Source of the DNA: a virus
DNA length: 64,000 bases
Direction: 5' to 3' (one strand)
IMG/VR virus record: IMGVR_UViG_3300046820_000903
Span: 18,292 to 82,291 of that record
Part shown: in pieces, positions 6,825 through 24,584 of the stretch
How the letters are laid out: every line of letters begins with the position of its first letter
How positions within the stretch are numbered: position 1 is the first letter of the stretch
Notes under the pieces: generated by a model
The model's input: only the letters and a program-made list of their open reading frames with translations
Databases searched by the model: none
Told to the model about the DNA's origin: nothing
Position numbers and translations under genes: made by a program

Positions 6825-7014
6825 TTCTCCGGCTCATTGGCAAGTTTGTTTCTTTTGGACGTTTAATTAAAGGAGAAACTCTATAGCCCTCAAATCGTAA
6901 TGATTGTACTTGGTGGCTAAGGCCACAGCTACATATCTGCTTCAACGGCAGAGTATAGAACGTATTATCTGAACTGCAAAGATGTGACCAAGTTTCCATA
7001 ATGCTATATATCAC
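6745..7014 (-). CDS. hypothetical protein
   Basis: ORF overlapping both neighbours in operon fashion. Confidence 0.5.
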   Translation of the reverse strand: MIYSIMETWSHLCSSDNTFYTLPLKQICSCGLSHQVQSLRFEGYRVSPLIKRPKETNLPMSRRIAALFLPKELYTKLDENQHDYYDRQG

Positions 7015-7370
7015 TTAAGGTGAGTTTTTTCTAGATTTACAATTTCTGCCTTGATAGCTTCAGCAAAGTTTAATGCTGATTGCTTGTTTAAAAGCATATG
7101 ATGTTCTTGCTTGTGTACTCCATTAACAAGTATATCATACACAGCTTTTAACCTATCTCCCCAACCTTTCCAGATTGGCGTCCACGTAGTGACATAGAAG
7201 CTTACTTCAACATCAGGGATGTCTTTATCACGTTGAACTTCAATCCACATTTTAACAGCATGGTCATCGGAGGTACAATCACACTCAACGTTAAAAACTT
7301 TAGCATCTCCAAAATCATTGTCGATGCTGATGCCCTGCGCTGGTCGTTGTGCTTTCATCACTTGCCCCAA
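7011..7370 (-). CDS. hypothetical protein
   Basis: ORF with CDCxxxxH motif; coupled to queE. Confidence 0.7.
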   Translation of the reverse strand: MGQVMKAQRPAQGISIDNDFGDAKVFNVECDCTSDDHAVKMWIEVQRDKDIPDVEVSFYVTTWTPIWKGWGDRLKAVYDILVNGVHKQEHHMLLNKQSALNFAEAIKAEIVNLEKTHLK

Positions 7371-8227
7371 CCGTTTGACCAGATGTCAACGTGCAGTCTA
7401 GGACTATATCTATAACCACGTGCCAGTGCTTCGTCTGCAATGTGTCTAGTATTTGAAAAGTATGCTTTGTCCGTGCCACCTACTGGCATAACATAAACTT
7501 GTCCACCAAAGCCTGCTTTGCGATACTCGCTAACTGCTTGGTCTACTTCTTTAAAATCTAAGATGTTATCAATAACAAACTTTAAGTAGGTATGTCCTAG
7601 TGTTTGATATTCGACTATAACATCGGGCTTAATAGCATCACTCCACTTTTCACCACTGGCACTTAACTTAGGGCTTACGCTAAAAGTTAGGTAGTCTCTG
7701 TCTCTACCAAAACGTGTCCATTCTTGAAACAAGTATTCATAAAAGTCTTCGTGTAACTTTTGAGTACCATTGGTTTCAAATGTTAAATTTTCTAAGTCTG
7801 CCATGCGTGGGTTGCTTAACAAACTTGGATAAAGCATTTGCCAACCCAACAACGGTTCACCACCTGTAATAACCAAATGTACATCGTTACCATTGTCTTG
7901 TAACCATTTATGATTAGGGGTAAGGTCTAGCATTGTGTCAATGCTTTGCTCTACGGAGTAGTTTGGACTAAGATGTTTAAAAGCAGGATGCCAACTTGCA
8001 TAGCTATCACATCCTGTTTGTGCTAACGGCAAGTCCATGAATGTTTTATATAAGTGAACTTCCTTACCAATGTCATCTGGCTCTGTAGTTTTCTCGCCAG
8101 CGGGCAGTCCAAAGCCCGGACACTTAAAGTTGCAACCAAATGTGCGGAAGAACACACTAGGTACACCTACAAAGCGTCCTTCGCCTTGTGCTGAGTAAAA
8201 GACTTCACTTACTTTAAATTCATTCAT
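7358..8227 (-). CDS. queE: 7-carboxy-7-deazaguanine synthase (radical SAM)
   Basis: EVFYSAQGEG..G.PSVFFRTFGCNFKC, GCDS, VITGGEPLL, ETNGT, SVSPKL and YSPRLHVDIW. Confidence 0.9.
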   Translation of the reverse strand: MNEFKVSEVFYSAQGEGRFVGVPSVFFRTFGCNFKCPGFGLPAGEKTTEPDDIGKEVHLYKTFMDLPLAQTGCDSYASWHPAFKHLSPNYSVEQSIDTMLDLTPNHKWLQDNGNDVHLVITGGEPLLGWQMLYPSLLSNPRMADLENLTFETNGTQKLHEDFYEYLFQEWTRFGRDRDYLTFSVSPKLSASGEKWSDAIKPDVIVEYQTLGHTYLKFVIDNILDFKEVDQAVSEYRKAGFGGQVYVMPVGGTDKAYFSNTRHIADEALARGYRYSPRLHVDIWSNGWGK

Positions 8228-8492
8228 AGATAGTAGACCACACTTTCAGTTTTTCAATTTTGGCTTGCTTTGCTTTGTCAAGGCCAGCTTCTGTTACAAT
8301 TCCCTTTAATTTTAACAGATCTACCATGGCAAGTACATCACCAATTTCACCTTCTAGGTGCTGTGCATTAGTTAGGGGCTTACCTGGCTTGAGGTTATCC
8401 AAACCAAAGCGATGACACTTGCTGACTGCTTGGATTACCTCTGCACATTCTTCACTGAGAATGTTCATAACTTCATGTAACTTGTTATCCAT
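8220..8492 (-). CDS. MazG-like NTP pyrophosphohydrolase
   Basis: EECAEVIQAVSK...EGEIGDVL all-alpha NTP-PPase motif. Confidence 0.75.
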   Translation of the reverse strand: MDNKLHEVMNILSEECAEVIQAVSKCHRFGLDNLKPGKPLTNAQHLEGEIGDVLAMVDLLKLKGIVTEAGLDKAKQAKIEKLKVWSTIYE

Positions 8493-8493
8493 A

Positions 8494-9045: not shown

Positions 9046-9054
9046 ACTAACTCC

Positions 9055-9894: not shown

Positions 9895-10168
9895 TGCCAG
9901 CTTCCAGTTTTGCTATGGAGTTTAGTCCGTTTACTGGGATTCCATCTTCGTCAACGATTGCAAAACCATCAAAGACAAACCCAGCACCTTTACAAAAGTC
10001 TTCAAACGCTTGTAAAATTTCTTCTAGGTTGTCATGATTATGATCTAAGACAAGTTTCCTAGTACCATCATTGTAGCATAACACCCATTGTGTGTCAAGC
10101 TCATTCTTGTCTATTTTGCCTAACGAGTGCAATGCTTTAACAATGGTGTCCCAATCTTTATTGCTCAT
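9875..10168 (-). CDS. hypothetical protein
   Basis: 97-aa coupled ORF. Confidence 0.6.
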   Translation of the reverse strand: MSNKDWDTIVKALHSLGKIDKNELDTQWVLCYNDGTRKLVLDHNHDNLEEILQAFEDFCKGAGFVFDGFAIVDEDGIPVNGLNSIAKLEAGNEDQTG

Positions 10169-10949
10169 TGGACCTCAATGATTCGTTTAATACAGAAATG
10201 GCTCTAATCAAATCAATGTGTATGCCAGACTTAACAAGGGCCGCCTCAAATGTTTTTACATCTTTTGGAAAGCATTTTCCACTAAATCCGTACATACCAT
10301 CAGCACCTGGAACTGTCCAATGGCTTACTCCAAGTCGACCTTCGTGTGTTAACAATTGTTTAACAACATCATATGAGGCACCATGTGCTTTGCATAATTG
10401 TGAAACTTGATTAGCAAAGATAACCTTCATTGCCAAGAATGTATTTGTAGATAGCTTTGCTATCATTGCTTCCAGAGGATCTGTGATAATAGTAAGGCCA
10501 GGGTAACTCATTACAAGGTCTGAAAACTCTTTAGCATCACCACCCAATACAATTACATTTGGATTCATTGCATCTTCTCGCCAAGTTGCTTCTCTGATAT
10601 ATTCAGGCCATACAATTAAATCATCACCAAACAATTCAATCAACTTTTGAACCGACTCGATGCTTGATGTACTACGTAAAACAATCTTGCCTTTAAAACC
10701 TTTTTCTAATGCTTCGTTAATTGCCGAGTCAACATTAGCTGTAGAGTTTTCTGGAATTGGTAGAGAATCATCTAAGTCTGTGTTTACACAAATTACAAGG
10801 TACTCTGCTTTATCCCATGAATCAGGATTAGCAATGATTCCTTTTGGTGGATCGTTAAAAATAACATCAATTGAGGGATTGAAGTTTTTTAGAAAAAGTT
10901 CTGTGGATTGGCCAACAATGCCTTGGCCTTGAATGATAATAGAGGTCAT
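10158..10949 (-). CDS. short UDP-glucose/GDP-mannose 6-dehydrogenase family protein
   Basis: GxGxxG, ICVNT, LRST, PEYIRE, KLSTNTFLAMKVIFAN and GFSGKCFPKD (catalytic Cys); lacks the C-terminal UDP-binding domain. Confidence 0.8.
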   Translation of the reverse strand: MTSIIIQGQGIVGQSTELFLKNFNPSIDVIFNDPPKGIIANPDSWDKAEYLVICVNTDLDDSLPIPENSTANVDSAINEALEKGFKGKIVLRSTSSIESVQKLIELFGDDLIVWPEYIREATWREDAMNPNVIVLGGDAKEFSDLVMSYPGLTIITDPLEAMIAKLSTNTFLAMKVIFANQVSQLCKAHGASYDVVKQLLTHEGRLGVSHWTVPGADGMYGFSGKCFPKDVKTFEAALVKSGIHIDLIRAISVLNESLRSNEQ

Positions 10950-10979
10950 AATTTATTTTAACACAAATAGTTTTTAATG

Positions 10980-11729
10980 TCAAGGACGGATTGCGTACTC
11001 TGGATACTTTGCTATGCTACGATCAAGTAGTTCTTCTAGTCGATTTACATCAATCCAGCCTTTGATAACTACAAGAATTTTTCTATACTTTGGATTAAAG
11101 TCTGCGCCGTGTAAGTAGTCTTCGTTGTTCCATGAAAACGTATTTGAGTCCTCGGGCAAGCTTATATAATAACGGCCCGACTTAGGCACACGTTTTTTTG
11201 AATTGGGCTTATACTTTTCACTTGAGCATAACCAAAAAGTTTCTTTGGGATTTTGGTCAGCTAACTTAATACGTATCTCAGTTGGAAAACGCATAATACC
11301 ATCAAGCGCTGGAGGCATATTACCATCGTAATGTGCAATAATAGTTTTATGTGCGCTCCATAATCTAATTGAGCGAATTCTTACATAAGGCAGTTCTTCA
11401 AATATACGTTTAAGGTATCTGGGTTGCGAGTAAGCAAGGTTGGTTGAAACTTTTGTTTTCCATGCGGCATCTTTAAGAAGCTTTGCATCTTCGTACAATG
11501 CAAGACCGTCCCATTGAGTATGTTCAAGTGAAGGGTTGTTAGTTCCAACAGCACCACGGTCAATTATTTGTCTAGCAACGTTTTCTTTTTCTTCATGCCA
11601 TATACGCCAAAACTCTTCTGGATTGTCTAGTTCAAATTTTGGTACGTCAAGTGGCAAATAAGCAATGCCCTTGTACTTTTCTATAAGTCTTGGACATTGT
11701 GAAAGATTGATTAGAGATTCTAGACCCAT
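10980..11729 (-). CDS. hypothetical protein, possible cupin/2OG-Fe(II) oxygenase
   Basis: HYD...H(GAD) arrangement resembles an HxD...H triad. Confidence 0.5.
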   Translation of the reverse strand: MGLESLINLSQCPRLIEKYKGIAYLPLDVPKFELDNPEEFWRIWHEEKENVARQIIDRGAVGTNNPSLEHTQWDGLALYEDAKLLKDAAWKTKVSTNLAYSQPRYLKRIFEELPYVRIRSIRLWSAHKTIIAHYDGNMPPALDGIMRFPTEIRIKLADQNPKETFWLCSSEKYKPNSKKRVPKSGRYYISLPEDSNTFSWNNEDYLHGADFNPKYRKILVVIKGWIDVNRLEELLDRSIAKYPEYAIRP

Positions 11730-12053
11730 TTACTTTTCCAACAAATGCGTTTTTTCTTTAACGTCTTTGAATTCATCAGCAGTTTCGAGCTGGGGCTTCT
11801 TCTTTAGGATGGTTGGCCAAATCATACTAAGCTCTGCGTTTAATGCAATATATGGATGTTGACTTGCATCAACATCAGTATCTGCAAAAATTGCATCTAC
11901 TGGGCACTCTGGCACACATACTCCACAGTCAATGCATTCATCTGGATCAATAACAATAAAGTTAGGCCCTTCTTTAAAACAGTCAACTGGGCATACGTCT
12001 ACACAATCAGTGTACTTGCACTTGACACAACTTTCAGTAACTACATAAGTCAT
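11730..12053 (-). CDS. fdxA: ferredoxin (7Fe/dicluster FdxA family)
   Basis: [26 protein letters not shown]...[17 protein letters not shown]. Confidence 0.93.
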
Positions 12054-12512
12054 TTATATTTTCCAATTAGATTCAATGTATTCTTTATTATCAGGCTTAT
12101 TGCCTGTAAGCCCTAGCATACTTCTGTATGCCTGCCATGCTTCTTGTACCATTGGATCTGTATGTCCACCAGTAGGTAAAAGATCTGCCCATACAGCATC
12201 TTCTTGCATCATACTTCTATATATACCAAAGTTGCGAGGCTGGTGTATTTTGCCCTCACGAAATAGAACACTGGCTACACCTTGACAGTCAGACTCGTCT
12301 AATCCATCCAAGTATCCAGGCCTATACATATATTCTTGAATGATTGGAACCAGTTGTTCCTGTGTTTCAAACCGTGTACCAGCTACAATAACAACAACAT
12401 CGTTGATATCAACTACATCCATAACAATGTCACGAATACAACGACCTAGGCTAAAACCAACTTTCATAATGTACTCCTGTTCCACCAAGATTCCCAAGGA
12501 AAATCGATCCAA
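12054..12512 (-). CDS. hypothetical protein
   Basis: Likely start MKVGFSLGRCIRDIV. Confidence 0.7.
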   Translation of the reverse strand: MDRFSLGILVEQEYIMKVGFSLGRCIRDIVMDVVDINDVVVIVAGTRFETQEQLVPIIQEYMYRPGYLDGLDESDCQGVASVLFREGKIHQPRNFGIYRSMMQEDAVWADLLPTGGHTDPMVQEAWQAYRSMLGLTGNKPDNKEYIESNWKI

Positions 12513-12970
12513 ATATCGTTTTCCGCTTTGTTAACGCTCATACCACAGTAGTCAGTATACTGGTTGCTGGCCTCATTGTCAACCAAAGCGGCAAACCGTA
12601 TTGCACTATGCCAATACTTTTCAATAAAATCTGGCTCAATACCAGCTACACTAGACGCCCAATCTTCCATGAGCCACTGTTGTGTTGCCCCTGAATCATT
12701 GATGTCATCAACTAACAAGATTTTCTTCCCGGCTATAACATCTTCTGGAGCCCACAGTAAAGATTCTGTTTGCGGGTTATCTCGCAATGATATCTTGACA
12801 GCTTCATGCGGCACTCCCAGGTAATGACTCATCATTATGCTTATAGGTAGACCACCACGATCGACACCTATTACAACATCCGGACGCCAGTCCTGCTTTT
12901 GCATTTGTCGAAGTATTTCCTGTACAGTATTCTGTACATCTTGCCAGCCTAGTGTTAGTTTATTACTCAT
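12464..12970 (-). CDS. purine phosphoribosyltransferase (Gpt/Hpt-like)
   Basis: IGVDRGGL, PRPP-binding ILLVDDINDSGAT, and WIDFPWE. Confidence 0.88.
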   Translation of the reverse strand: MSNKLTLGWQDVQNTVQEILRQMQKQDWRPDVVIGVDRGGLPISIMMSHYLGVPHEAVKISLRDNPQTESLLWAPEDVIAGKKILLVDDINDSGATQQWLMEDWASSVAGIEPDFIEKYWHSAIRFAALVDNEASNQYTDYCGMSVNKAENDIWIDFPWESWWNRSTL

Positions 12971-13472
12971 TGGAATCTGGTCCGCTTAAAAGTTTTTCTA
13001 TTGCCTTATACTCATCATACATTTCTTTTAGCATGGGATACTTTTCATGCATTTCAAAATTTGGTGCAATTATTAGTAAACGCCTCTTTAGTGTTTCCAT
13101 CATGTCTGCCAGTTCGTCGATATCAATTTTACTCTTTCCAGTTTTAATATAACTTTTGTTATCTTCATTGGCAATTGATATATTAGGTTGACTTGATCCT
13201 ATAGTATATGTAGACTGTCCAATTCCATTGCTACTAAGGTATGCACCGCTAGTTCCAGATAGACCTGTTATTGTTATGTTTCCCAAGTCAATAGGGTTAA
13301 GTGGACCCAAGCTAATAGTATCATATGTGCCATTTAAATCTATAGAGGCAGTTTCAATTTCTTCTGCTATAAAACCAGTTTGAGTAGACATATTTGTCTC
13401 ATCCCATTTAAACTCAACAGGATCTATAGTGGACAGTACATCCTTCAATTTGTTTTTAGTATCATCATTCAT
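12963..13472 (-). CDS. hypothetical protein
   Basis: 169-aa ORF; N-terminus resembles a peptidase S74 chaperone fragment. Confidence 0.65.
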   Translation of the reverse strand: MNDDTKNKLKDVLSTIDPVEFKWDETNMSTQTGFIAEEIETASIDLNGTYDTISLGPLNPIDLGNITITGLSGTSGAYLSSNGIGQSTYTIGSSQPNISIANEDNKSYIKTGKSKIDIDELADMMETLKRRLLIIAPNFEMHEKYPMLKEMYDEYKAIEKLLSGPDSNE

Positions 13473-13475
13473 ACT

Positions 13476-14219
13476 TTACCGTGGGGCAAATTCTTGTTGC
13501 ATTTTAATATTGTCAAAGAACTCTTTCTTTGTACTTTGATCATCCTTAAAGGCACCTTTAAGTACTGTGGTCTGTGTCAAACTAGAGTGTGCCATAATGC
13601 CGCGATTCTCACAGCATCCGTGCGTGGCTTGAATGTATACTGCTACGTTTTCAGAGTCAGTAGCTTTGCTAATCTCGCGGGCGATGTCGTTACAAAGTTC
13701 CTCCTGGAGAGTACCTCGTCTGGCGCACCACTGGGCAATTCTTGTGTACTTCGATAAGCCAATAAGTTTATTAGCGGCAATAATACCAATATAGGCAACA
13801 CCACTAACAGGCTGATGATGATGACTGCACATACTGCGAAGCTCGCTACGTACAACAAGCATACCTTCATAACGGTCCGCTGAGTCATTTGGAAATGCTG
13901 TTGCATCTGGTGGTGTTTCATATCTACCTGCCATTATTTCATTGAAGTACATTTTAGCAAGTCGTCTTGCAGTACCTTTTGAGTTTGGATCGTCTTCACG
14001 ATCGATAAGCAACCTATCAAGCACTAGTTCAAATGCTTCTGCGGCTTCGTTAATTAACACTTCTTTTTCAGATTCGTTAATGTATTCGCTGATGTTGTCG
14101 CCAGCCCAAAAGCGTTTACCTTCACGCCTCATTCTAGAACGAATGTAGCCACCTAAGTAGCCTTCTGAATACCCACCATCGCCTGCCATTGCGTCCAGGC
14201 CTGTTTCTTTATTTGTCAA
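13476..14219 (-). CDS. folE: GTP cyclohydrolase I
   Basis: TARRLAKMY, SMCSHHHQP, IGLSKYTR, LQEEL and HGCCENRG; TTG start with GGAG RBS. Confidence 0.95.
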   Translation of the reverse strand: MTNKETGLDAMAGDGGYSEGYLGGYIRSRMRREGKRFWAGDNISEYINESEKEVLINEAAEAFELVLDRLLIDREDDPNSKGTARRLAKMYFNEIMAGRYETPPDATAFPNDSADRYEGMLVVRSELRSMCSHHHQPVSGVAYIGIIAANKLIGLSKYTRIAQWCARRGTLQEELCNDIAREISKATDSENVAVYIQATHGCCENRGIMAHSSLTQTTVLKGAFKDDQSTKKEFFDNIKMQQEFAPR

Positions 14220-14260
14220 TTTTGTTTCTCCGAGTTAATGACGTGGATGTCATATTGTTT

Positions 14261-14289
14261 ATTGTAACATCTATTTAGGAATTTAGCAA
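14261..14289 (-). promoter_or_regulatory. folE promoter region (sigma70-like plus late motif)
   Basis: TTGCTA-17 nt-TACAAT with TGn extension; CTAAATA is nested in the spacer. Confidence 0.5.
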
Positions 14290-14595
14290 GACTTCACTTG
14301 GCCAACTTAGCATGTATAACATTAAATCTTCTGCCTTTTTAAAGTGTATCAGTATGGTAATGTTAAAGTCTGGTGCTAACATTATATCCTTATCTGCATT
14401 CATCTTACCAAGTTTACGCCAATTAAAGTCGTTTCCTTTGTAATCAGTTGCGGTCCATCTATTCTTGCAATTATCAATCAACCACCGCCTAATGTCTTTG
14501 AGTATAAACAATGAAGCGGCGGTCTTGGCCGAATATACTTTATCCTTGGTTTGCGTTAGCATAGAACTCACTTTTACGCAAGTCATCCCAACCAC
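14275..14595 (-). CDS. hypothetical protein, small F-x-L-x-W family member
   Basis: IRRWLIDNC...IHFKKAEDLMLYMLSW. Confidence 0.65.
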   Translation of the reverse strand: MVGMTCVKVSSMLTQTKDKVYSAKTAASLFILKDIRRWLIDNCKNRWTATDYKGNDFNWRKLGKMNADKDIMLAPDFNITILIHFKKAEDLMLYMLSWPSEVLLNS

Positions 14596-14785
14596 CTACT
14601 AACTTACCATCAATTACAATTTGTGGAACAGCACGGGCTGATGGAACGGCTTCTAATAAGTTCTCACGAGTAAAACCATTAGTACCAATTTTATGTTCGG
14701 TGAAAGCAATGTTCTTGCTCTTCATCCAGTTTTTTGCCATATCGCAAAACTGGCATTGTTCTTTACTATATATAACGACTTGCAT
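14540..14785 (-). CDS. glutaredoxin
   Basis: CQFC active site, AVPQIVIDG and VGGWDDL. Confidence 0.92.
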   Translation of the reverse strand: MQVVIYSKEQCQFCDMAKNWMKSKNIAFTEHKIGTNGFTRENLLEAVPSARAVPQIVIDGKLVGGWDDLRKSEFYANANQG

Positions 14786-15220
14786 TTATTTTTCCTGTGA
14801 TGTATCGTATGTTTGTGCAAAGATGTCTTTCTTGACTGCACCAAAATCGCCCGGCCCGTGTCTAACAATGTAGTCGTTGCCCTTTGTGTATGCCAAGTCT
14901 CCCCACGATGTATGTAGTGTACCATCGTGGTTGGCTAGTTTGGCATGTTTGTTAATTTTCTTAGGTGTAGCTGTACCATTGCCATTGTCATCATAAAGTG
15001 TTTTAAACTTCTCTGGAGTAATAGGATAATTTTCTCCTTTTGGTCCAGTCATAATGTAGTGACCTACTTCGTAGTTAACCGGACCTTCTAATGTTTTTAC
15101 AGTACCTGGCTCTTTGGCAACTTCATACTTGACAGGTGCGGCCTTTTTAAATGTAGTAAAGGCACCGTCAGTGAACCAATCGTCATTGACTACTGATTCC
15201 TTTAAGTCTTTGATTTTCAT
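14786..15220 (-). CDS. PGDYG-like protein with an internal duplication
   Basis: Two similar halves (TVKTLEGPVNYEVGHYIM and TLHTSWGDLAYTKGNDYIV), PGDFG; N-terminus MKIKDLKE. Confidence 0.65.
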   Translation of the reverse strand: MKIKDLKESVVNDDWFTDGAFTTFKKAAPVKYEVAKEPGTVKTLEGPVNYEVGHYIMTGPKGENYPITPEKFKTLYDDNGNGTATPKKINKHAKLANHDGTLHTSWGDLAYTKGNDYIVRHGPGDFGAVKKDIFAQTYDTSQEK

Positions 15221-15384
15221 ACATTATCTCCTTTAGTGTCTTCTTGATTTGTTAGATATTTTTCTAAGGCATCTTTAAATGCTTCTTCGGTTAGACCATG
15301 CCAACCAATACATTTTCCAGTCGGACTACGACCACACCCACAGCTACCAAACTCTTTGGGGTTTTCTTTAACTCTGATTTGCAT
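15217..15384 (-). CDS. small CDGSH-like 3Cys-1His protein
   Basis: MQIRVKENPKEFGSCGCGRSPTGKCIGWH; pattern CxCxxS...CxGxH. Confidence 0.6.
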   Translation of the reverse strand: MQIRVKENPKEFGSCGCGRSPTGKCIGWHGLTEEAFKDALEKYLTNQEDTKGDNV

Positions 15385-15802
15385 TTTTTTCTTTTTCTGC
15401 TTCGTACACTCTTTTACGTAAGCTACTAGATGAAAAACTATGGTCACGCCCGTTAAAGTATAGGTCAATGTTTCGTTTGTGGCAAAGTTCCCTGCCAGTG
15501 AACTCTTTACCTTCGTATTCTACACCTAAGATGCGAACATCAAGTGGTAATATTAACAGCAAATCTTCTAAGTCTTTTTCAGTATTGTAGACCCAAATTT
15601 CATCTACATACTTATTTCCTCGTAGTTGCATTTGGCGTTCAATGATACTTTGTATAGGCTTATTTTTTGTAGCCCTATCTAATGTAGGATCGTTTTGTAA
15701 GCCTACAATTAGATAATCACATTGTGTCTTTGCTTCTTGCAACATAGAAACATGACCAGCATGTAACAAATCAAATGTTGAACAAGTAAATCCTACTTTC
15801 AA
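15368..15802 (-). CDS. glycerol-3-phosphate-type cytidylyltransferase
   Basis: GFTCSTFDLLHAGH (HxGH), ER, VDE and FSSSSLR; probable TTG start overlapping the galE stop. Confidence 0.85.
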   Translation of the reverse strand: MKVGFTCSTFDLLHAGHVSMLQEAKTQCDYLIVGLQNDPTLDRATKNKPIQSIIERQMQLRGNKYVDEIWVYNTEKDLEDLLLILPLDVRILGVEYEGKEFTGRELCHKRNIDLYFNGRDHSFSSSSLRKRVYEAEKEKNANQS

Positions 15803-16794
15803 GCTCTGCTCCTGTATTCTACAGAGTTGTACCATGCCCATGCAGTTTTAACAATGTTGTCAATACTACTAGAATCAGTCTTCCAACCTGTTTCTTTCTT
15901 AAATTTATATGCACTGGCAACTAGCGTAGCAGGGTCGCCTTCTCGTCTTGGTCCAGTATGTGTTAATACCATTCTTCCCGTGATACGTTCAACGCTGGCA
16001 ATGATTTCTTTAATGCTTACACCTTGGCCAGATCCTAGGTTGTATTCTACTGAGGATCCTGGTGACATGCCTTCGGAATACAATGTTGATAGGTAATGTG
16101 CATTAGCAATGTCTTCTACATGTAGATAGTCACGTACACAGGTACCATCGGTAGTAGGGTAATCTGTGCCGTTAAGAGTAAACACACCCTTGTCAACAAT
16201 TGTTTCCATGATGCGAGCAATTAAATGAGTTGCTTGTTTCAATTGGCCATGTCTTACTTTTGAATCAGCACCACAGGCATTGAAGTAACGCAATGCTACA
16301 GTTTTAAATCCATAGCCTTTAGCACAGTCCCGTAATACTTGCTCTGCCATTAACTTGCTTTGACCATATGGACTAATTGGAGACTTATCGCTTTGCTCTG
16401 TTAATGATGTACTATTGCCAGGGTCTCCATAAACTGCGGCACTGGAAGAAAACACTACAGTTTTTTTCCAACCTCTACTGGCAAGTGTGCTTAATAGACG
16501 AGCAGTATTACCTACATTGTTTAGATAGTAAGGACCTGGATCGGTCATACTAGGCCCAACTAAACTTGTGCCAGCAATGTGAATAAGTGCTGATGGATTC
16601 TTATCAATCATTAAATTGATAAACATAGGATTGGTAAAGTCGCCTGTGACAAAGGAATCTACAACACCACGTATCCATGGAGCAGTAGTATTTCTATCTA
16701 CTCCAATAACGTGATATCCTAGATCCTTAAATCTTAGAACAGTTTGTCCGCCAATATAACCATTGCAACCAGTTATAGCTACGCACTTATCCAT
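15799..16794 (-). CDS. galE: UDP-glucose 4-epimerase
   Basis: TGCNGYIG, SSSAAVYG, YGQSK, LRYFNACGAD, GTCVRDYLHV and RREGDP. Confidence 0.92.
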   Translation of the reverse strand: MDKCVAITGCNGYIGGQTVLRFKDLGYHVIGVDRNTTAPWIRGVVDSFVTGDFTNPMFINLMIDKNPSALIHIAGTSLVGPSMTDPGPYYLNNVGNTARLLSTLASRGWKKTVVFSSSAAVYGDPGNSTSLTEQSDKSPISPYGQSKLMAEQVLRDCAKGYGFKTVALRYFNACGADSKVRHGQLKQATHLIARIMETIVDKGVFTLNGTDYPTTDGTCVRDYLHVEDIANAHYLSTLYSEGMSPGSSVEYNLGSGQGVSIKEIIASVERITGRMVLTHTGPRREGDPATLVASAYKFKKETGWKTDSSSIDNIVKTAWAWYNSVEYRSRA

Positions 16795-18005
16795 TAGTAC
16801 TTTGCTCCTGATACATGATCACGATAGCGATTGCCTGAGCGATTCCATGGTGTAGCTTTACATTCCATACCACCTTCGGCAACAGTCCCAGCAGTTTCCA
16901 TAATGTCAATGATGCGATCAACAGTACCATTGTTCCAATCGCTAATCTTACCTTGACGAACATGAACACCAGCTAGTTGAATACGAAGCTTGTTTATAGC
17001 GTCATCTAAACTCCATGGAACATATAACCTGGTATGGTCATTGGCAAATGTCTCAGGAAAGCTACGATAGGCAGGATACAAAACATTACAACCAAGAGCA
17101 TCGGCCTCGCTAACGGTGTTTGAAACCCAGTCTTGTAAAGCACAGTTGAACAGAACACGGCTATCATTGACAATACTATAATACTCATTTTTACTTAGGT
17201 CCTCGTAGATTTTGAGTTTGTTTTGTTCTGCCATCTTGTAAGCACGTTCCAAATACTTTGGATTGTTACTGCGTAACGGACCGCCACTTAGTACTGCGAA
17301 CTCAACTGGATAGCCTGGCCATTGACGATGCCATTCTTCAATAAGATCCATAAAGAAGTCGGGTTGCTTCTCTTGGTCAAACCTTGCCGCAAAAATTACA
17401 CGGTGTGCTCTTTCTGGGAAAGATTTAATTTTATTATTAACACGACCTTGTACTTCTTCCTTACCAAATGCCAGTCCGCTAATGTTATAGATAGGAGCAG
17501 TCCAGTTTGCAATACGCATATGAGCTACCATCTCTTCGTTTGTTGCAAGCACTCCTGTAACAAAACAATTTACCATTTGCTCATATGTGCTCATCCACTT
17601 GCTCATTCCCCATACGTGAACAAAGTCATCTGGGTCAATTGCTTGTGCTAAACAACGCACAAAGATACGTGGACGCAAGTTAGCAGGCACTTGATCAAGG
17701 ATGTAAGGTAAGCTTTCGATACCTGGCTGGAACATGTCTTCAAAATAAATGACATCTTCATTTGTGACATCACCTCGTCGCATCATTTGAACAAGGTTCA
17801 TCATTTGACTCATACCAAAGTAACTACGGCCATGTGCGTCTAACACTTGTCCTACACTAATTGCTTTAGTATTGTCAATAGTACTTCCAGGCACTATCAC
17901 ATAGTTGATGCCTCGGCGTTTAAATACAGCTTCATTCCATTGCTGGAGTTGAAGCGTGTAACGCCCTTCATAGGGCTCGAGGCCCATATAAAAGAGCTTA
18001 CGCAT
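16794..18005 (-). CDS. GT-B glycosyltransferase
   Basis: FAARFDQEKQP, EYYSIV...ALQDWVSNTVSEA and YPAYRSFPE, as in the GT4-like C-terminal domain. Confidence 0.75.
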   Translation of the reverse strand: MRKLFYMGLEPYEGRYTLQLQQWNEAVFKRRGINYVIVPGSTIDNTKAISVGQVLDAHGRSYFGMSQMMNLVQMMRRGDVTNEDVIYFEDMFQPGIESLPYILDQVPANLRPRIFVRCLAQAIDPDDFVHVWGMSKWMSTYEQMVNCFVTGVLATNEEMVAHMRIANWTAPIYNISGLAFGKEEVQGRVNNKIKSFPERAHRVIFAARFDQEKQPDFFMDLIEEWHRQWPGYPVEFAVLSGGPLRSNNPKYLERAYKMAEQNKLKIYEDLSKNEYYSIVNDSRVLFNCALQDWVSNTVSEADALGCNVLYPAYRSFPETFANDHTRLYVPWSLDDAINKLRIQLAGVHVRQGKISDWNNGTVDRIIDIMETAGTVAEGGMECKATPWNRSGNRYRDHVSGAKY

Positions 18006-18448
18006 TACAGCACCAATCGATTTGGGTTACAGCACAGCCCATCAACTGTGTGTGCTTTACCTTCTGGAGTCCATGGGCTTTTATAAAAGCCTACATGAAT
18101 CTTAAGTGCTTTGTTAGCACGGTCTTGTGCGCTTTGCACATTAACTGTATAAGTGAAGCTACGATCTCCACTTGCCTCATGAGTACGCAACTCTGGCGTA
18201 TCAATAGCATAACTGTAAATCATGCCATCCTTACACAAGTCTGTAAGGTATTGGTTATAGAACTCCAAAGGCAAGTGCCCAAGGTCTTCAGTTAATACAC
18301 CATCGTATAACTCGCTAATTTTTAGCAAGTCAAACTTGATGTGGTTGATGTTAAGACCAGCCCTGCGGGGTTGGTAGCCATTGTTGTAACCACGGTCACC
18401 ACCGCGATTGAATTTTACGTGTTGTTTAATATTGCTTGAGGCATCCAT
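18005..18448 (-). CDS. hypothetical protein
   Basis: Likely start MDASSNIK; RGG-rich N-terminus. Confidence 0.65.
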   Translation of the reverse strand: MDASSNIKQHVKFNRGGDRGYNNGYQPRRAGLNINHIKFDLLKISELYDGVLTEDLGHLPLEFYNQYLTDLCKDGMIYSYAIDTPELRTHEASGDRSFTYTVNVQSAQDRANKALKIHVGFYKSPWTPEGKAHTVDGLCCNPNRLVL

Positions 18449-18794
18449 TTTCGCCATCCTCCGAAACTTCAATCCAAACTTTACGATCTGTGTACTTTGA
18501 TGAGATCTGACCATGTAGATCATCTGCCATCATTTCACAGGACTTGAAATCCAATGCCAGCGTTCCTTGCGAATATAAATTCTCTAACCAACGCTTGAAC
18601 TGAATAAACTCCACATCTCTATCATCATGAAAGACTTCGAGATACACTTTAAAGTGGAACATGTGTCGATGAGGATGTCCTAAAAAAGAAACATCATACT
18701 CGTCACCTGTTGCCAACTTAGGATCCGTAAGTGCCGCCGGATACCTATGAATACCTTCTTTGCGGAAGGTTACCCAAATCATGTCTGTTGACAT
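18426..18794 (-). CDS. QueD-paralogue T-fold protein (DpdL-like)
   Basis: EGIH...FLGHPHRHMFHFKV...DRDVEFI...SCEMMA...IEVSEDGENG; has LxxxHRHxF instead of the QueD CxxxHGH motif. Confidence 0.7.
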   Translation of the reverse strand: MSTDMIWVTFRKEGIHRYPAALTDPKLATGDEYDVSFLGHPHRHMFHFKVYLEVFHDDRDVEFIQFKRWLENLYSQGTLALDFKSCEMMADDLHGQISSKYTDRKVWIEVSEDGENGCLKQY

Positions 18795-18802
18795 GTTATT
18801 CC

Positions 18803-19012
18803 TTAATCAATGTAGTTGTTAGCTTTTAAGTATACCCACATCTTCCAGTCAATTGCCTGAGCAAATTCTAGAAGCTTGTCCATTTTTTTGTTAAGTTCAG
18901 CGATACCATCATCGCTACCGCTCTCTGCAACGGCTTCATCGGCACCAGCAGACTTTGGCAAAGGACGCTTAACCGCCTTGTTTAAATTGCCAACTTTAAC
19001 ATCATCGTTCAT
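18803..19012 (-). CDS. hypothetical protein
   Basis: 69-aa coupled ORF. Confidence 0.65.
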   Translation of the reverse strand: MNDDVKVGNLNKAVKRPLPKSAGADEAVAESGSDDGIAELNKKMDKLLEFAQAIDWKMWVYLKANNYID

Positions 19013-19013
19013 T

Positions 19014-19592
19014 TTATATTTCCTTGTTTAGGTTTACAGGTGTATCGCCTTTATAGGCACTCCATGGCGTAAAGTACTTTCTTTTAGTGAGGTTCTCTAA
19101 AGGAACGCACCATACACCAGGATTCGTAGCATCAAAGCTCTTGTCGTCGACTTTGATGGTTGTATTATAATTTAACAGTCTTAGGTAAGGAAGTTTTACC
19201 GAAACCATTGGAATAACACGATTGTTGTCACTGGCAGAGCTTTCTAGAAAGCCTTCAATTTGACTGGCAGTGATGTCTACTGTAATATAATCAATACTAG
19301 TGCCGTCAAGCAATTCATCAATCATGCCATCAATTTGGCGCCACGTATAATAATCATCATTTGCTACACTATGAAAGCTCATGTTAGCACCGAGATAAAC
19401 GTGACGAATGTACTTTGAATGATCGTGATAGCTAGACCTATCACCAATAATACGTTTAAGTGTATCCATGGGTTGGATACCAACAACAAACAATGTTAGC
19501 ATATCCTTAGCAGGCGAACTTTCAACTTCAGTCCCAATAAAGTAGTTTACACTAGTTGTTGGGCCTGTACCATAATCACGTTCAATACTCAT
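19014..19592 (-). CDS. hypothetical protein translationally coupled to the DpdA-like gene
   Basis: ATGA overlap with 19589..21145; YFIGTEVE, TLFVVG, YLGANMSF and DDKSFDATNPGVW. Confidence 0.75.
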   Translation of the reverse strand: MSIERDYGTGPTTSVNYFIGTEVESSPAKDMLTLFVVGIQPMDTLKRIIGDRSSYHDHSKYIRHVYLGANMSFHSVANDDYYTWRQIDGMIDELLDGTSIDYITVDITASQIEGFLESSASDNNRVIPMVSVKLPYLRLLNYNTTIKVDDKSFDATNPGVWCVPLENLTKRKYFTPWSAYKGDTPVNLNKEI

Positions 19593-21145
19593 TCCAAGTC
19601 CTCTTCAAGTTCCATTAACTTTTCATTGTCTAAACTTGCCATGTCATCTTCTTCTGGAAGCTCATCAACTGTGTCAAACAAGTCTTTACCTTTTGCGGCA
19701 TTAGCGGCGTCAACACCACCAAAGCTAATGGAGTTTAAGAACGTTGTATTATCAACAATCATTTGACGAGCTTCTGCCATAGTAGTTGCAGGATCAAATA
19801 GAACTTCTACAAAGTTGTTAAAGTACAAGATGTCATTTGGAATAAACTCACTTAACTGTGGAGCCTTCTTGCCAAACCCAACTGCATCTTTATAACTTAC
19901 TTTGGTCCGCTCGTATTCAATATCTGCTACTCGCAATGTTTCTTGCACCGCTTGTATATGATTATACACGTTATGTGCCATGATGAGCAAGTAGGACATG
20001 GTATCCCAACTAGTCTTTCCAACCTTACCTGTCTTGTTGGCATCGTTTGGACCAAGATAACAAATGTCGCCTGCTACCAGCCGTTCCATAATAGGACCTT
20101 GATGAGGCATAGCCAGCTTTGAACCTTTGAGCCGCTTGTCGTCAACACTCTTGCCCATAGAATATGTTAGCTTCTGTGGAGTAAAGTAATTGTAATTGTA
20201 ACTCAATGCATAGCCACCAGCCGCAACAAACGGACTTGCCGCATCAAAGCTAATGTTGATGTTAGGATTGTGATGCTTTTGTAATTGGCGCTTGATAGAA
20301 GTCAAGTAGCAGGCCCACTTTAGACGACCAATGCCTAGGAAGTGAATCCAGTCCTTATCTGCAATAAGACCATCTTCAATCAAGTCAAGCATACGATTTA
20401 ATACTGAGGGCATGTGCTTCATATTGATACCAGCAAACGCCCAACCTTCAAGTGTACGATCTTCGGTATAGCCTAACTCAACTACACTGGACTTTTTACT
20501 AAAGTGTTTGATTGTGTCGTACCACAGCTTGGAGTTATCTGGTGTGCTACCAGAGATAACGTTTAGAAACTTTGTAGCACCTGGTACACGATGCTTCATA
20601 AAGTAATGAAGGTTATGTACTGAAATATCAAGTGTATCTTCAAACTTGGTTAAACCAGTCTTAGCACTCAGCGGAGGTACTGCGGCAAACGCAGGAACGT
20701 CAAGTGTCATTGACCAATCTGAAGTATGTTCTAAGTAGCGTAGAATTTCTTCGCGGAACTTGTCACCTTCCGCACCTTTGATGTTCTTCCAATCCATCTT
20801 GATAACACCAGTTGCCAATTGGAAACCAGAGCTATCACCTACAATTGTTGTTCGGCTACGATCACGCTTGTGAATCATTGGCTCTTTGTCATCACAACGA
20901 GTCAAGTTGCGATCAGCATGGCCTGCTGAATATAGCGCAACGCCATAGTGATAGTACGAGTCTTCTGTCTTAAGAAAGTTTACACCTTCCAAGCCGTGTT
21001 CAAAACCTGCAGGGACACGACCAGCAGGTACAAATGTTGGATCACTGGCAACCTTACCAAGTTGTTTGGTATAGAAGCCACTAATGGCTGGGAGATAAAA
21101 GGCATAGTTGCCTTCTACTGCCCTTTTGGTCATGTCAATAGTCAT
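19589..21145 (-). CDS. dpdA: TGT-fold 7-deazaguanine DNA transglycosylase-like protein (DpdA family)
   Basis: GDSSGFQ (TGT DSGGFQ), SMTLDVP, IHFLGIG and SFDAASPF; lies with folE, queE and the T-fold gene and next to the clamp and polymerase. Confidence 0.8.
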   Translation of the reverse strand: MTIDMTKRAVEGNYAFYLPAISGFYTKQLGKVASDPTFVPAGRVPAGFEHGLEGVNFLKTEDSYYHYGVALYSAGHADRNLTRCDDKEPMIHKRDRSRTTIVGDSSGFQLATGVIKMDWKNIKGAEGDKFREEILRYLEHTSDWSMTLDVPAFAAVPPLSAKTGLTKFEDTLDISVHNLHYFMKHRVPGATKFLNVISGSTPDNSKLWYDTIKHFSKKSSVVELGYTEDRTLEGWAFAGINMKHMPSVLNRMLDLIEDGLIADKDWIHFLGIGRLKWACYLTSIKRQLQKHHNPNINISFDAASPFVAAGGYALSYNYNYFTPQKLTYSMGKSVDDKRLKGSKLAMPHQGPIMERLVAGDICYLGPNDANKTGKVGKTSWDTMSYLLIMAHNVYNHIQAVQETLRVADIEYERTKVSYKDAVGFGKKAPQLSEFIPNDILYFNNFVEVLFDPATTMAEARQMIVDNTTFLNSISFGGVDAANAAKGKDLFDTVDELPEEDDMASLDNEKLMELEEDLE

Positions 21146-21935: not shown

Positions 21936-24584
21936 TTAGGAAAACAAGTCATCAATAAATCCTCGGTCCTTACTAAGGCTCAAGTCCCAGTGTAATACGC
22001 CGAGCAAGTTTTCAATCTTACTGTCAATGATAGTTTCCTCCATTGCTGTATGATCAAATGGCAATTGCTTAAACCAATCTGGGAGATTCATCTCGTCAAT
22101 TGGATACGCAATACTGTTAATTTGCATTGGGTTGGACCTTAGCTTGCATACAATGGCCTTTTGACCATCTGTAATATCCATACTACGCCTATCTCCAAAT
22201 GCTTCTTTGATACGATTCCAGTTAATGGCCGCCATAGCATGTCCTACTCCGCATTTACCTGTTTTGACATAAACATCTGTATGCTTAGTTAGATTATTAA
22301 CACGCTTGGGTGTGCCCTTTTCCCAACCAGGGCGGCTCTTAAACTCCTCACGGAACTGTTTAACACGAGCCATGACATCTTGTTCACTCTTACCTTCCAG
22401 AGTCATGGTAAGTGCTTCTTCCAAGAACCGTTGCATGAACTCTGGAGTATCGGCTCGCTTCATGTCAAGCCCCATGGCTTTAAGCTCACCAGTGGCACCA
22501 TCTTTATCTTTACGCTTGCCTTCCTTATCATAGATAAGAACAGCATAACGCTTCTTGGTCATGTAAATGCCTTTACTTGCAACTACTTCTCGACCAGCTT
22601 TGATAATCTCACCTTGGCTAGCAGGAGCATTGAACGCATAGTTCATAAACGCAGAGAAGGTATCGTTTACCTGCTCACTAATAGCATCGTACAACTCGAT
22701 AATCTTTTCTCTGCTCCAATCAATCTCATCACGTTCAATTTGTTCTTTAAAGATTGGATATGCAGAGAAGTAAACAGAGTCAGTGTCACCATAGATAATT
22801 GCCTTGCCCATATGATCCTTCTCACCTGTCAAGCAATCGTTAACAGCACCTGCCATGTGTCTAGCAACTAAGCGTCCACATAGTGTAGTTGATTGACCTA
22901 AGCGTTGATCAAAGAATCGACTACCAGCGTTCAACAACGCACCGTAAGCAGAGTTCAAGTTAATCTTCTTAACCAGCTGTCGCTTGTCCCAGAAGTCAAA
23001 CATATCTGTTCCGTAAGCTTCTTTGGCTTTTGCCTGTAGTTCTTTACGTTCAGCATACCAACGCTCTAGTAGACCTGGGATAACACCTTTACTGGCATAG
23101 CTAAAGATTGTACCGTTGCCACTGATCATCAATGGCTTACCACCATGGAATACAAAGTCGTATACTTCTGCGCTTGACATTTCACTGCTGGTACCATCTG
23201 CCCAATCAACAATTTCTGTTTGCCCAATGTCTCGTTTCATCACAGATTCATATTCAAAGCAAGCAAACTTGCCCTCCCAAAACTCTGCAATGCCTTTGCC
23301 ATTTGCAATAAATTCGTCAATGCCGGCAAGTGTGCGTGATTGTCGTACTTGACCAATGATAGTCTCGGGACTCATATTAAGCGCACGGATCAGACTTGGA
23401 TACAGACTGTTAATGTCCATACTGCCAATCCACTCATGCATGCCTGCTTTAGGTACAGCAACATAAGCACCTGCCGCGGCATTGTCTTTTGCATCATTAC
23501 TGCGCCTTGGGCGGTCTGGAACCACCATGCCTAGTCTATGTGCTTCATTGATAACAGCTTGATCGGTAACTGCCACTGCACCTAGTGTAGCCCGAAGTCC
23601 TACACAGTTGGCATGACTAATCAAATTGGTAAGCTCAATGAACTTTAACTTGTCATCTAGTTTCTTCAACAACAGTACGTCTTGCCTGTTGTAGGCAATG
23701 AACTTTTCCCAGTCGTTGTTGTATAACTGATCCAGTGTGCCTTCATATGGAATCTTATTCTCACCAAGTTCATACTCACCAATGGCATCCAAGCGATAAG
23801 TGTGCATCTCATGATAGTTGTATTTTCGATACAGTTCAAGATAGTCCAGGTGAACACGACCAATAGGATCGTATGTTTCTAGTGTCTTGCCATACTTTTC
23901 AAACTCACGCTTCTTGGGGAATTGGTTCCATAGACAAATCCTTCGAGTGTGTTCTTTGCCTAGTATGCGTGTGATGCGATTGGTAGTGTAAGGAATATCA
24001 AAGCCTTCACTGTTCCAGCCACTCAGTACATCTGCATCATCTATCAGATCCAGAAACATTTCCAACATTTCTTTTTCGTCTGCACACAAGATTGTGTCAT
24101 CAAACTTTGATACAATGTCTTTGGCAATGTTATCTGCCATTGCTTCGGGTTTAAGAACTAATGTAATAGTCCTATTAATCCATTGCAAGTGCGTGGTGAT
24201 AGCAGTAATGTAATTGAAAGGATCATCTGGCGGCGCAAAGCCTTTTACCTTGTCGTATGATACCTCAATGTCAAAAAACGCTACATGAAGGTTAGGAGCA
24301 TCCATACCGCTATACACTTCTTCCAAGCAACGATTAAGCGGCTTGTAATCGCTTTCACACAGCTTTTTGTTATTGTGTATGCGCCTCTCTTTGTCAAAAG
24401 CCGCGGCATTGCTTAGTAGGATACGACTAACACGGTCACCGGCAATGTTAGTAAACTTGCCTTTGCTATCTGGGTAATACAGTACATACTTGGCTGGATA
24501 CTCTTTGAGTACCCTCTTGCCATCTACACGTTCTACAACGTGGATGATTTCTTTTTTCTTATCGTGATATGCGTCTACAAACAT
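21936..24584 (-). CDS. family B DNA polymerase (gp43-like)
   Basis: Exonuclease motifs FFDIE, GWNSEGFD and YNRQD; polymerase motifs DINSLYPS, KKINLNSAYG, YGDTDS and KKRYA; uninterrupted. Confidence 0.97.
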   Translation of the reverse strand: MFVDAYHDKKKEIIHVVERVDGKRVLKEYPAKYVLYYPDSKGKFTNIAGDRVSRILLSNAAAFDKERRIHNNKKLCESDYKPLNRCLEEVYSGMDAPNLHVAFFDIEVSYDKVKGFAPPDDPFNYITAITTHLQWINRTITLVLKPEAMADNIAKDIVSKFDDTILCADEKEMLEMFLDLIDDADVLSGWNSEGFDIPYTTNRITRILGKEHTRRICLWNQFPKKREFEKYGKTLETYDPIGRVHLDYLELYRKYNYHEMHTYRLDAIGEYELGENKIPYEGTLDQLYNNDWEKFIAYNRQDVLLLKKLDDKLKFIELTNLISHANCVGLRATLGAVAVTDQAVINEAHRLGMVVPDRPRRSNDAKDNAAAGAYVAVPKAGMHEWIGSMDINSLYPSLIRALNMSPETIIGQVRQSRTLAGIDEFIANGKGIAEFWEGKFACFEYESVMKRDIGQTEIVDWADGTSSEMSSAEVYDFVFHGGKPLMISGNGTIFSYASKGVIPGLLERWYAERKELQAKAKEAYGTDMFDFWDKRQLVKKINLNSAYGALLNAGSRFFDQRLGQSTTLCGRLVARHMAGAVNDCLTGEKDHMGKAIIYGDTDSVYFSAYPIFKEQIERDEIDWSREKIIELYDAISEQVNDTFSAFMNYAFNAPASQGEIIKAGREVVASKGIYMTKKRYAVLIYDKEGKRKDKDGATGELKAMGLDMKRADTPEFMQRFLEEALTMTLEGKSEQDVMARVKQFREEFKSRPGWEKGTPKRVNNLTKHTDVYVKTGKCGVGHAMAAINWNRIKEAFGDRRSMDITDGQKAIVCKLRSNPMQINSIAYPIDEMNLPDWFKQLPFDHTAMEETIIDSKIENLLGVLHWDLSLSKDRGFIDDLFS

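Follow-up and report, generated by a model that had tools for sequence, protein, structure and literature searches.

In T-even phages, α- and β-glucosyltransferases of the GT-B type glucosylate 5-hydroxymethylcytosine, and to our knowledge all glycosylated DNA bases are pyrimidines. A sugar on a 7-deazaguanine derivative is found in animal tRNA, where queuosine is galactosylated or mannosylated on its cyclopentenediol hydroxyl. In the DNA of the Cellulophaga phage phiST, 2'-deoxy-7-deazaguanosine (dDG), observed there at [M+H]+ m/z 267.109, replaces all dG (Cui et al. 2023, PMC10516641), and in the formation of huimycin the enzyme HuiG attaches N-acetylglucosamine to the 2-amino group of a free base derived from preQ0 (PMC7439116; bioRxiv 10.64898/2026.04.15.718813). 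Here we analyze a stretch of 64,000 nucleotides (nt) from the IMG/VR virus record IMGVR_UViG_3300046820_000903 (positions 18,292 to 82,291; hereafter the window), in which genes of a 7-deazaguanine pathway lie beside a glycosyltransferase (GT) gene. The locus is best explained as a 7-deazaguanine DNA-modification module of the DpdL type that belongs to an uncultured jumbo phage and has a GT built in. We consider it very likely that the module modifies DNA with a 7-deazaguanine, and likely that the GT works in the deazaguanine pathway; for the reading we favor, that the GT adds a hexose, probably galactose, to 7-deazaguanine in DNA, we estimate a probability of about 0.5.

An earlier note on this DNA, made from the sequence without database searches, had described one tightly packed run of eight open reading frames (ORFs) that might build a glycosylated deazaguanine. 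All eight are present where the note placed them, on the minus strand. The ATGA stop/start overlap that it saw between the genes of the 518-aa and 192-aa proteins is there in the sequence, and the packing is indeed tight, the other junctions being 1-8 nt gaps or overlaps. From upstream to downstream, the run consists of the following genes, where TGT stands for tRNA-guanine transglycosylase:

19589..21145, minus strand: 518-aa TGT-fold enzyme, DpdA-like, of a DpdA3-related subfamily (AlphaFold2 model, Foldseek, hhalign)
19014..19592, minus strand: 192-aa conserved protein, ATGA-coupled to the transglycosylase gene (overlap, conservation)
18803..19012, minus strand: 69-aa small ORF, lineage-specific (homologues in 19 of 79 loci, closest clade only; no family match)
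18426..18794, minus strand: 122-aa DpdL-like QueD paralogue, proposed 7-carboxy-7-deazaguanine decarboxylase (motif, homology, phrog_17812)
18005..18523, minus strand: 172-aa ORF, lineage-specific (homologues in 18 of 79 loci; no family match)
16794..18005, minus strand: 403-aa GT4-like (GT-B) glycosyltransferase, type 1 (weak Pfam matches, homologues, Atlas neighbours)
15799..16794, minus strand: UDP-glucose 4-epimerase GalE (TIGR01179, 306.3 bits, equivalog cut-off 262.3; PF01370, E 9e-46)
15368..15841, minus strand: 157-aa nucleotidyltransferase of the cytidylyl/adenylyltransferase family (PF01467, 44.7 bits, cut-off 21; TIGR00125, 53 bits, cut-off 27.7; phrog_7878)

In its deazaguanine genes, the window resembles phiST. 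Both have FolE, QueE (or, in the window, a QueE-like enzyme), a DpdL or DpdL-like protein with the LxxxHRHxF signature, a divergent TGT-like enzyme and MazG, QueC was seen neither in phiST nor in the 82 kb of the record, and in both the genes lie next to a DNA polymerase gene. The two differ in that phiST has QueD, which was not found in these 82 kb, and a 259-aa DpdA3, whereas the window transglycosylase is 518 aa long and resembles DpdA3 at the profile level only. Searches of 35 kb of phiST gave no match to the GT, the 192-aa protein, GalE or the phosphoribosyltransferase (PRTase) of the window. The sugar-free product of phiST suggests that the GT acts beyond dDG formation. Together, dpdL and dpdA of either ACP17 or phiST are reported to have given no dDG in Escherichia coli, and Cui et al. 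suggest that additional unknown enzymes take part (PMC10516641); the word glycosyltransferase does not occur in the main text of that paper. Between its DpdL and DpdA3 genes, phiST has CGPG_00066 (L085, 16382-16861), which matches the P-loop kinase family AAA_18 just above the cut-off (29.8 against 29.4 bits); in ACP17, the same position is taken by a GT.

Signature and homology place the 122-aa protein, which the earlier note had called a T-fold protein, with DpdL. Its LGHPHRHMF fits the signature LxxxHRHxF, which marks DpdL and replaces the QueD motif CxxxHGH (PMC10516641, section 16), and which is present in 59 of 62 homologues. The protein is 55% identical to the DpdL of ACP17 (E 8e-41), 34% to that of phiST, and about 55-56% to its homologues in BUDD and PA5oct. 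Four further genes follow downstream on the same strand:

13476..14219, minus strand: GTP cyclohydrolase I (FolE), first step of 7-deazaguanine synthesis (PF01227, 137.9 bits; phrog_2197)
12464..12970, minus strand: purine-type PRTase (PF00156, 50.5 bits)
8220..8492, minus strand: MazG-like nucleotide pyrophosphohydrolase (PF03819, 27.4 bits, cut-off 22)
7358..8227, minus strand: QueE-like radical SAM enzyme, 7-carboxy-7-deazaguanine synthase (homology)

The QueE-like protein shares 45% identity with the QueE annotated in BUCT-ZZ01 and 30% with the one in PA5oct, and five NCBIfam QueE models match it, all under their cut-offs. A Pfam search of the 82-kb contig did not find QueC. With a DpdL signature, FolE and a QueE-like enzyme, and without QueC, the gene set is of the DpdL type, not of the preQ0 type. 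MazG is also present in the phiST cluster and in locus L030. The best NCBIfam matches of the PRTase are xanthine and hypoxanthine-guanine PRTases, all under cut-off; its homologues occur in distant metagenomic loci as well as in the PA5oct and BUCT-ZZ01 clusters, and it plausibly serves the salvage of guanine released from DNA. Taken together with the GMP-reductase-family and YhhQ-like genes of distant loci, it is compatible with either salvage or a nucleotide-level route; a toyocamycin-like nucleoside pathway formed by PRTase, GMP reductase and QueE we rate below guanine salvage. One such distant relative of the cluster (L063, 16388-18771) has, between FolE and QueE, a gene of the GMP reductase/IMPDH family (E 2.5e-70), a PRTase gene and a YhhQ-like transporter gene.

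The 518-aa protein had no match in Pfam, PHROG, NCBIfam or the PDB sequences; in particular, the Pfam TGT family (PF01702) did not match it at E<=0.01, and a six-frame search of the 82-kb contig at E<=1 found no canonical TGT. Its AlphaFold2 model, computed from a 30-sequence alignment, has a mean predicted local distance difference test score (pLDDT) of 83.4 and a predicted template modeling (TM) score of 0.85. In a Foldseek search of this model against the PDB, all 50 matches listed were TGTs (E 8e-7 to 8e-6, probability 1.0, TM-scores normalized by target 0.46-0.54). An hhalign comparison of the 518-aa family with an alignment of five DpdA3 proteins (ACP17, BUCT-ZZ01, BUDD, pf16, phiST) reached a probability of 89.9% (E 1.7e-6, 177 columns) and paired GDSSGFQ with DSGGLQ, HFLGIG with HFLGIG, and ISFDAAS with ISYDSTT. 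Within the family, D104 (in GDSSGFQ), D149 and D301 (in ISFDAAS) are invariant among 30 sequences; D104 and D301 we take to be the equivalents of TGT Asp102 and Asp280. With its TGT fold and DpdA3-like catalytic motifs, the protein deserves the label dpdA-like that it had been given, and we predict that it is a guanine/7-deazaguanine DNA transglycosylase.

A profile hidden Markov model of the 518-aa family did not match DpdA3 proteins at E<=0.01, and tblastn likewise gave no match; judged by its sequences, the family is best treated as a sister subfamily to DpdA3. It has at least 1,931 relatives in a metagenome protein collection, and none of the 120 matches listed carries a Pfam label. The published DpdA3 and DpdA4 subfamilies are likewise described as having been detected by HHpred alone (PMC10516641).

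To the transglycosylase, the GT is tied from both sides. A scan of viral contigs gave 78 loci with 41-96% identity to the 518-aa protein, and we restricted the counts to the 54 in which 6 kb or more follow downstream. All 54 contain both the 192-aa gene and the DpdL-like gene. A match to the window GT is found in 49, and four of the remaining five have a GT of a second type, the kind found in PA5oct and ACP17. Assigned by type, the GT is of type 1 in 47 loci and of type 2 in six, and absent from one, so that 53/54 loci have a GT of either type; in 48/54, an epimerase (GalE) follows it. The two GT types swap at the same position within one clade, which argues for selection keeping a GT there. 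Starting from the GT, we confirmed at least 394 viral relatives and examined the best 80 of these (67-94% identity) within 8 kb: 76 have the transglycosylase and 77 have DpdL. In the four loci without the transglycosylase, the GT lies at most 1.7 kb from the contig end, so that the locus is cut off upstream. As close relatives, these 80 loci represent largely one lineage.

The association extends beyond this lineage. In all 16 cultured-phage records that match the GT, a TGT-like gene adjoins it, as judged from gene content for PA5oct, ACP17, BUDD and BUCT-ZZ01 and from adjacent coordinates for the others. PA5oct (Wroclawvirus) and ten relatives have the order transglycosylase, GT, DpdL-like gene. 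In PA5oct (EST35_0316-0322), the genes are PolB, a virion protein, the transglycosylase (52% identity), a GT-like gene, a DpdL-like gene (56%), a PRTase-like gene and QueE; it differs from the window in that its GT is of type 2, with 22% identity to the window GT, and in that neither a homologue of the 192-aa protein nor GalE or FolE turned up within 9 kb. In ACP17, the order is FolE, 192-aa homologue, DpdA3, GT, DpdL, QueE, and in the Xanthomonas phages BUDD and X1 it is GT, TGT, DpdL-like gene, QueE. In the T4-like cyanophage BUCT-ZZ01, the GT shares 71% identity with that of the window and lies beside a DpdL-like gene and DpdA3 instead of an enzyme of the 518-aa family. In pf16, where DpdA3 is paired with QueC, the GT had no match.

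A deazaguanine synthesis and incorporation system in PA5oct had been noted computationally (Iyer et al. 2021). According to the END-nuclease preprint, PA5oct DNA resists several restriction enzymes with G-containing sites and is attacked by nucleases that sense hypermodified DNA; in that preprint, the modified G of PA5oct is deduced from restriction patterns, and liquid chromatography-mass spectrometry is given for other phages only.

A species-genome collection yielded eight matches, seven of which are the same phage cluster on contigs of metagenome-assembled genomes, and the eighth an Azospirillum scaffold whose type-2 GT is 46-48% identical to jumbo-phage GTs. On this Azospirillum isscasi scaffold (L174, 7325-10526), a YhhQ-like Vut_1 gene, the type-2 GT and, on the opposite strand, a transglycosylase of the 518-aa family lie together, and integrases, a transposase and an AAA_15 ATPase flank the mobile island.

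The earlier note had proposed to check whether the GT and the 192-aa gene accompany this DpdA clade in a conserved gene order, and they do. Even at deep divergence and in several unrelated phage lineages, the GT remains linked to the transglycosylase; its distribution is therefore not independent of that of dpdA, and a role of the GT in the deazaguanine pathway is likely. The analysis shows this co-occurrence, the gene identities and the TGT fold.

The GT itself belongs to a large group: the metagenome protein collection yielded at least 8,000 scored relatives, and PF00534 is present in most of the 120 listed ones. Its homologues exceed the Pfam cut-offs (BUDD 45.7 bits; BUCT-ZZ01 28.3 and 26.5 bits), its profile matches to GT4 enzymes in the PDB are weak (E 0.004-0.8), and its Atlas neighbours are viral GT1/GT4 clusters, including one named 'GT4-conflict'. 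In ten sequences from six genomic contexts, R208, K213 and E300 are invariant; presumably they correspond to the donor-side residues of GT4 enzymes (Arg/Lys, and Glu of the EX7E-like motif). E10, R15, Y16, D90, D127 and E142 in the N-terminal part are invariant in the same six contexts, a conserved set that we read as pointing to a shared acceptor. In BUCT-ZZ01, a second GT-like gene (UTS52035, 447 aa, weak Glyco_trans_1_4 match; L080, 14604-15947) adjoins the DpdA3-like gene, so two sugars may be added there.

Of the two genes downstream of the GT that the earlier note had called galE and cytidylyltransferase, the first scores above the TIGR01179 equivalog cut-off for GalE, and the second passes PF01467 and TIGR00125, which assigns it to the cytidylyl/adenylyltransferase family. 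Against RfaE domain II, the 157-aa protein reaches 73 bits, under the cut-off of 181.5. Its gene is confined to the close clade, and in L168 it lies between the transglycosylase and 192-aa genes.

The route we favor, for which we infer each catalytic step as well as DNA as the target, the sugar and its attachment atom, would run as follows. FolE would convert GTP to dihydroneopterin triphosphate, a QueD, perhaps encoded elsewhere or supplied by the host, would lead to 6-carboxytetrahydropterin (CPH4), and the QueE-like enzyme would form 7-carboxy-7-deazaguanine, which the DpdL-like enzyme would decarboxylate to 7-deazaguanine. This base would then be swapped for guanine in the phage DNA by the 518-aa TGT-fold enzyme, and the PRTase plausibly recycles the released guanine. 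Before or after the insertion, the GT4-like enzyme would move a hexose from a UDP-sugar to the deazaguanine; the donor in this lineage is probably UDP-galactose from the adjacent GalE, and the sugar probably galactose, because GalE follows the GT in 48/54 loci. The DNA in the virion would thereby come to contain a deazapurine with a sugar, which would block restriction.

Such a pathway would resemble that of the T-even phages in that a phage GT-B enzyme decorates an already modified base from a UDP-sugar as a counter-defence. The acceptors differ: that of the T-even phages is a pyrimidine with a hydroxymethyl handle, whereas the acceptor in the window would be a purine analogue that has no evident hydroxyl group. 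Our searches, which included no dedicated comparison, revealed no similarity in sequence between the window GT and the T-even glucosyltransferases. Like glycosylated queuosine, the proposed product would be a 7-deazaguanine derivative that bears a sugar within a nucleic acid, in DNA rather than RNA; the cyclopentenediol of queuosine cannot be made by the pathway of the window, in which QueC, QueF and QueA were not seen. Huimycin and dapiramicin are similar in that a glycosyltransferase is encoded with FolE, QueD and QueE homologues and the sugar sits on a 7-deazaguanine core, and differ in being free small molecules of actinomycetes, derived from preQ0 via QueC and made without a transglycosylase; the likeness drawn here is one of chemistry. 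As N2-glycosides, they indicate that a sugar on the 2-amino group of 7-deazaguanine is chemically feasible.

Several points weigh against the proposed sugar-bearing base. As 7-deazaguanine has no hydroxyl group, an O-glycoside would require an unseen hydroxylation, and otherwise the bond would have to be N- or C-glycosidic; we know of no precedent for a GT4 enzyme that forms an N- or C-glycoside on DNA. The window GT itself scores 20.9 bits with Glycos_transf_1 and 21.0 bits with Glyco_trans_1_4, under the cut-offs of 26.4 and 27. The co-occurrence comes mostly from one large phage group, and conserved order can by itself hold genes together. In L059, the only one of the 54 loci without a detectable GT, the epimerase directly follows the DpdL-like gene; this is a natural GT-less variant of the module. 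QueD was not found in the 82 kb, where a Pfam search for PTPS gave no match, and the decarboxylation of 7-carboxy-7-deazaguanine by DpdL is presented in the literature as a prediction, an activity never demonstrated according to that source (PMC10516641). Finally, the window has other sugar-nucleotide genes at 28-35 kb, of the kind that phages use for other ends. They are part of a second sugar/tailoring island (28109-39124), which contains:

28109-28900: cytidylyltransferase-like domain fused to a mannose-6-phosphate-isomerase/cupin domain
32674-33318: FkbM methyltransferase
33311-34270: GDP-fucose-synthase-like epimerase
34267-35814 and 37817-39124: two radical SAM proteins

Alternatively, the GT might work in the deazaguanine pathway while the virion base is sugar-free, for instance dDG, with the GT acting on an intermediate or on the nucleotide pool. 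This could take the form of a transient glycoside of the free base, of a pre-replicative step via the PRTase, or of a non-transferase accessory subunit of the transglycosylase. The co-occurrence evidence supports such a role as well as it supports a sugar on the DNA base, the PRTase, MazG and the GMP-reductase-family gene of distant loci point to nucleotide-level chemistry, and both the P-loop kinase-like gene of phiST at the GT position of ACP17 and the failure of dpdL and dpdA alone to reconstitute dDG (PMC10516641) are consistent with it. However, phiST makes dDG without a detectable GT, and the invariant R208, K213 and E300 together with a dedicated GalE fit true sugar transfer with the product retained, so that we regard a sugar-free base as unlikely. 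It is quite improbable that GT, GalE and nucleotidyltransferase are auxiliary genes for host surface polysaccharide or for the glycosylation of virion proteins, adjacent merely through a conserved gene order in the replication region. Relatives of the GT are annotated at source as 'glycosyltransferase involved in cell wall biosynthesis', the window has the second sugar-nucleotide island and a nucleotide-sugar dehydrogenase (10158-10949), and the 239-aa gene upstream of the module is homologous to a PA5oct virion protein, all of which would suit such a role. Yet the GT lies beside a TGT- or DpdL-like gene despite differing gene orders in the T4-like cyanophage, ACP17, the Xanthomonas phages, PA5oct and the bacterial island, the transglycosylase adjoins it in 16/16 cultured-phage records, and pf16, the phage with DpdA3 and QueC that we checked, gave no GT match.

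A glycosylated small molecule as the product, either an N2-glycoside of a 7-deazaguanine that resembles huimycin or dapiramicin, or a glycosylated pterin derived from the products of FolE and the T-fold enzyme, appears very improbable to us. Its appeal lies in the cyanobacterial pterin glucoside pathway, which also consists of FolE, a T-fold enzyme, a short-chain dehydrogenase/reductase (SDR) and a GT, and in the action of HuiG on a free preQ0-derived base. Against it, the gene found most constantly beside the GT encodes a TGT-fold transglycosylase whose catalytic motifs are intact, the SDR of the cluster is an equivalog of GalE and not a pterin reductase, the cluster sits among replication genes (PolB, RNase H), and the characterised deazapurine metabolite clusters, as the literature describes them, are without nucleic-acid insertion enzymes (PMC7439116; bioRxiv 10.64898/2026.04.15.718813). 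The glycosylated deazaguanine operon proposed in the earlier note is partly supported: the link of the GT to dpdA stands, a role in the pathway is likely, and to a sugar on the DNA base we give about even odds.

The 192-aa protein, which the earlier note suggested as a possible dedicated partner of DpdA, does accompany the DpdA clade, in 54/54 loci and also in ACP17, beside DpdA3. Near the transglycosylase of the Azospirillum island, and near those of PA5oct, BUCT-ZZ01 and BUDD, no homologue was found. At E<=1e-3, the family comprises 760 representatives; the 150 listed are all standalone proteins of 127-352 aa, and the domain was seen in fused form neither among these nor in a search of proteins 528-2000 aa long. 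The family is marked by conserved acidic residues and the motif NPGVW. Searches of Pfam, PHROG, NCBIfam and the PDB sequences gave no match, and the AlphaFold2 model (pLDDT 84.5) matched nothing in the PDB with Foldseek at E<=1e-3 and solely the ACP17 homologue in BFVD. The best match with VIA-align wide, to STAS domains (Z-score 7.2), is within the common range of the tool, and the Atlas neighbours (0.90, fungal DUF7730) are at chance level, so that neither is convincing. Complex prediction of the 518-aa and 192-aa proteins scored 0.00 in two runs, a result informative neither way. We conclude that the 192-aa protein is a conserved companion of the 518-aa family and a candidate for a DpdA partner. 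In ACP17, homology to the family (ASD50402; L081, 7212-7724) begins some 90-110 nt before the annotated start (7326), which suggests that the gene was deposited in too short a form.

Of the two lineage-specific ORFs, neither the 69-aa nor the 172-aa protein matched anything in Pfam, PHROG, NCBIfam or the PDB sequences. In its longest form, the 172-aa ORF shares 98 nt with the end of the 122-aa ORF, which makes a later true start probable.

The whole IMG/VR record has 82,291 bases and is estimated by CheckV to be about 25% complete, which points to a jumbo phage as its source. From 4 to 46 kb of the window, nearly all genes lie on the minus strand, and replication genes (PolB, RNase H) surround the cluster, with the family-B DNA polymerase gene (PolB, 21936-24584) a short way upstream of the module. 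The product of the 239-aa gene just upstream of the transglycosylase gene is the homologue of the PA5oct virion protein. Between about 21,900 and 12,645, no terminator-like sites were found on the minus strand. A sigma-70-like promoter match (11/12) is located at 21919-21891, upstream of the 239-aa gene; promoter-like sites are not enriched (36 against 32 +/- 6 in shuffled sequences). From the sequence, co-transcription of the eight-gene run is plausible.

Contig bases 1-18291, upstream of the window (L175), contain ThyX and lipid-type oxygenases; fatty-acid desaturase/hydroxylase and Asp/Asn-hydroxylase-like genes are found there. With ThyX on the contig, thymidine looks ordinary. Queuosine genes were absent from these 18 kb. 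In the extended cluster, a 249-aa protein without family match adjoins a 2x[4Fe-4S] ferredoxin (10980-12053), and beside them lies the short nucleotide-sugar dehydrogenase homologue at 10158-10949. All three are conserved in 13-14 of 79 loci and might further modify the base or the sugar. Unusual phage cargo elsewhere in the window comprises a CHASE2 sensor fused to an adenylate/guanylate cyclase domain (51280-53343) and, adjoining its gene, an 819-aa protein with an Amidoligase_2 domain (53369-55828). Homologues of the curli secretion proteins CsgG (160 bits) and CsgF (60300-61761) follow proteins with FecR-like and F5/8-type-C domains.

A search of the literature, with thin coverage of subscription journals, found no report of a glycosylated deazaguanine or deazapurine in DNA. 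We tentatively propose, at slightly less than even odds, that aquatic jumbo phages of a very large group with worldwide distribution substitute a hexosylated 7-deazaguanine, bearing galactose in this lineage, for the guanine of their DNA, and that PA5oct, ACP17, the Xanthomonas phages X1 and BUDD, BUCT-ZZ01 and some bacterial islands do likewise. The sugar would be attached by a GT4-type enzyme, either as an N- or C-glycoside or once a hydroxylation has taken place, and the 192-aa protein would be another new enzyme or subunit of the pathway. A sugar-bearing deazapurine might explain both the modified G of PA5oct and the failure to reconstitute dDG from dpdL and dpdA. The module is abundant in metagenomes and several of its carriers are in culture, so the prediction is testable. 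If it holds, DNA would for the first time be known to contain a purine analogue with a sugar, a new class of DNA hypermodification with a bearing on restriction, on modification-dependent defence nucleases, and on the sequencing and cloning of such phage DNA.

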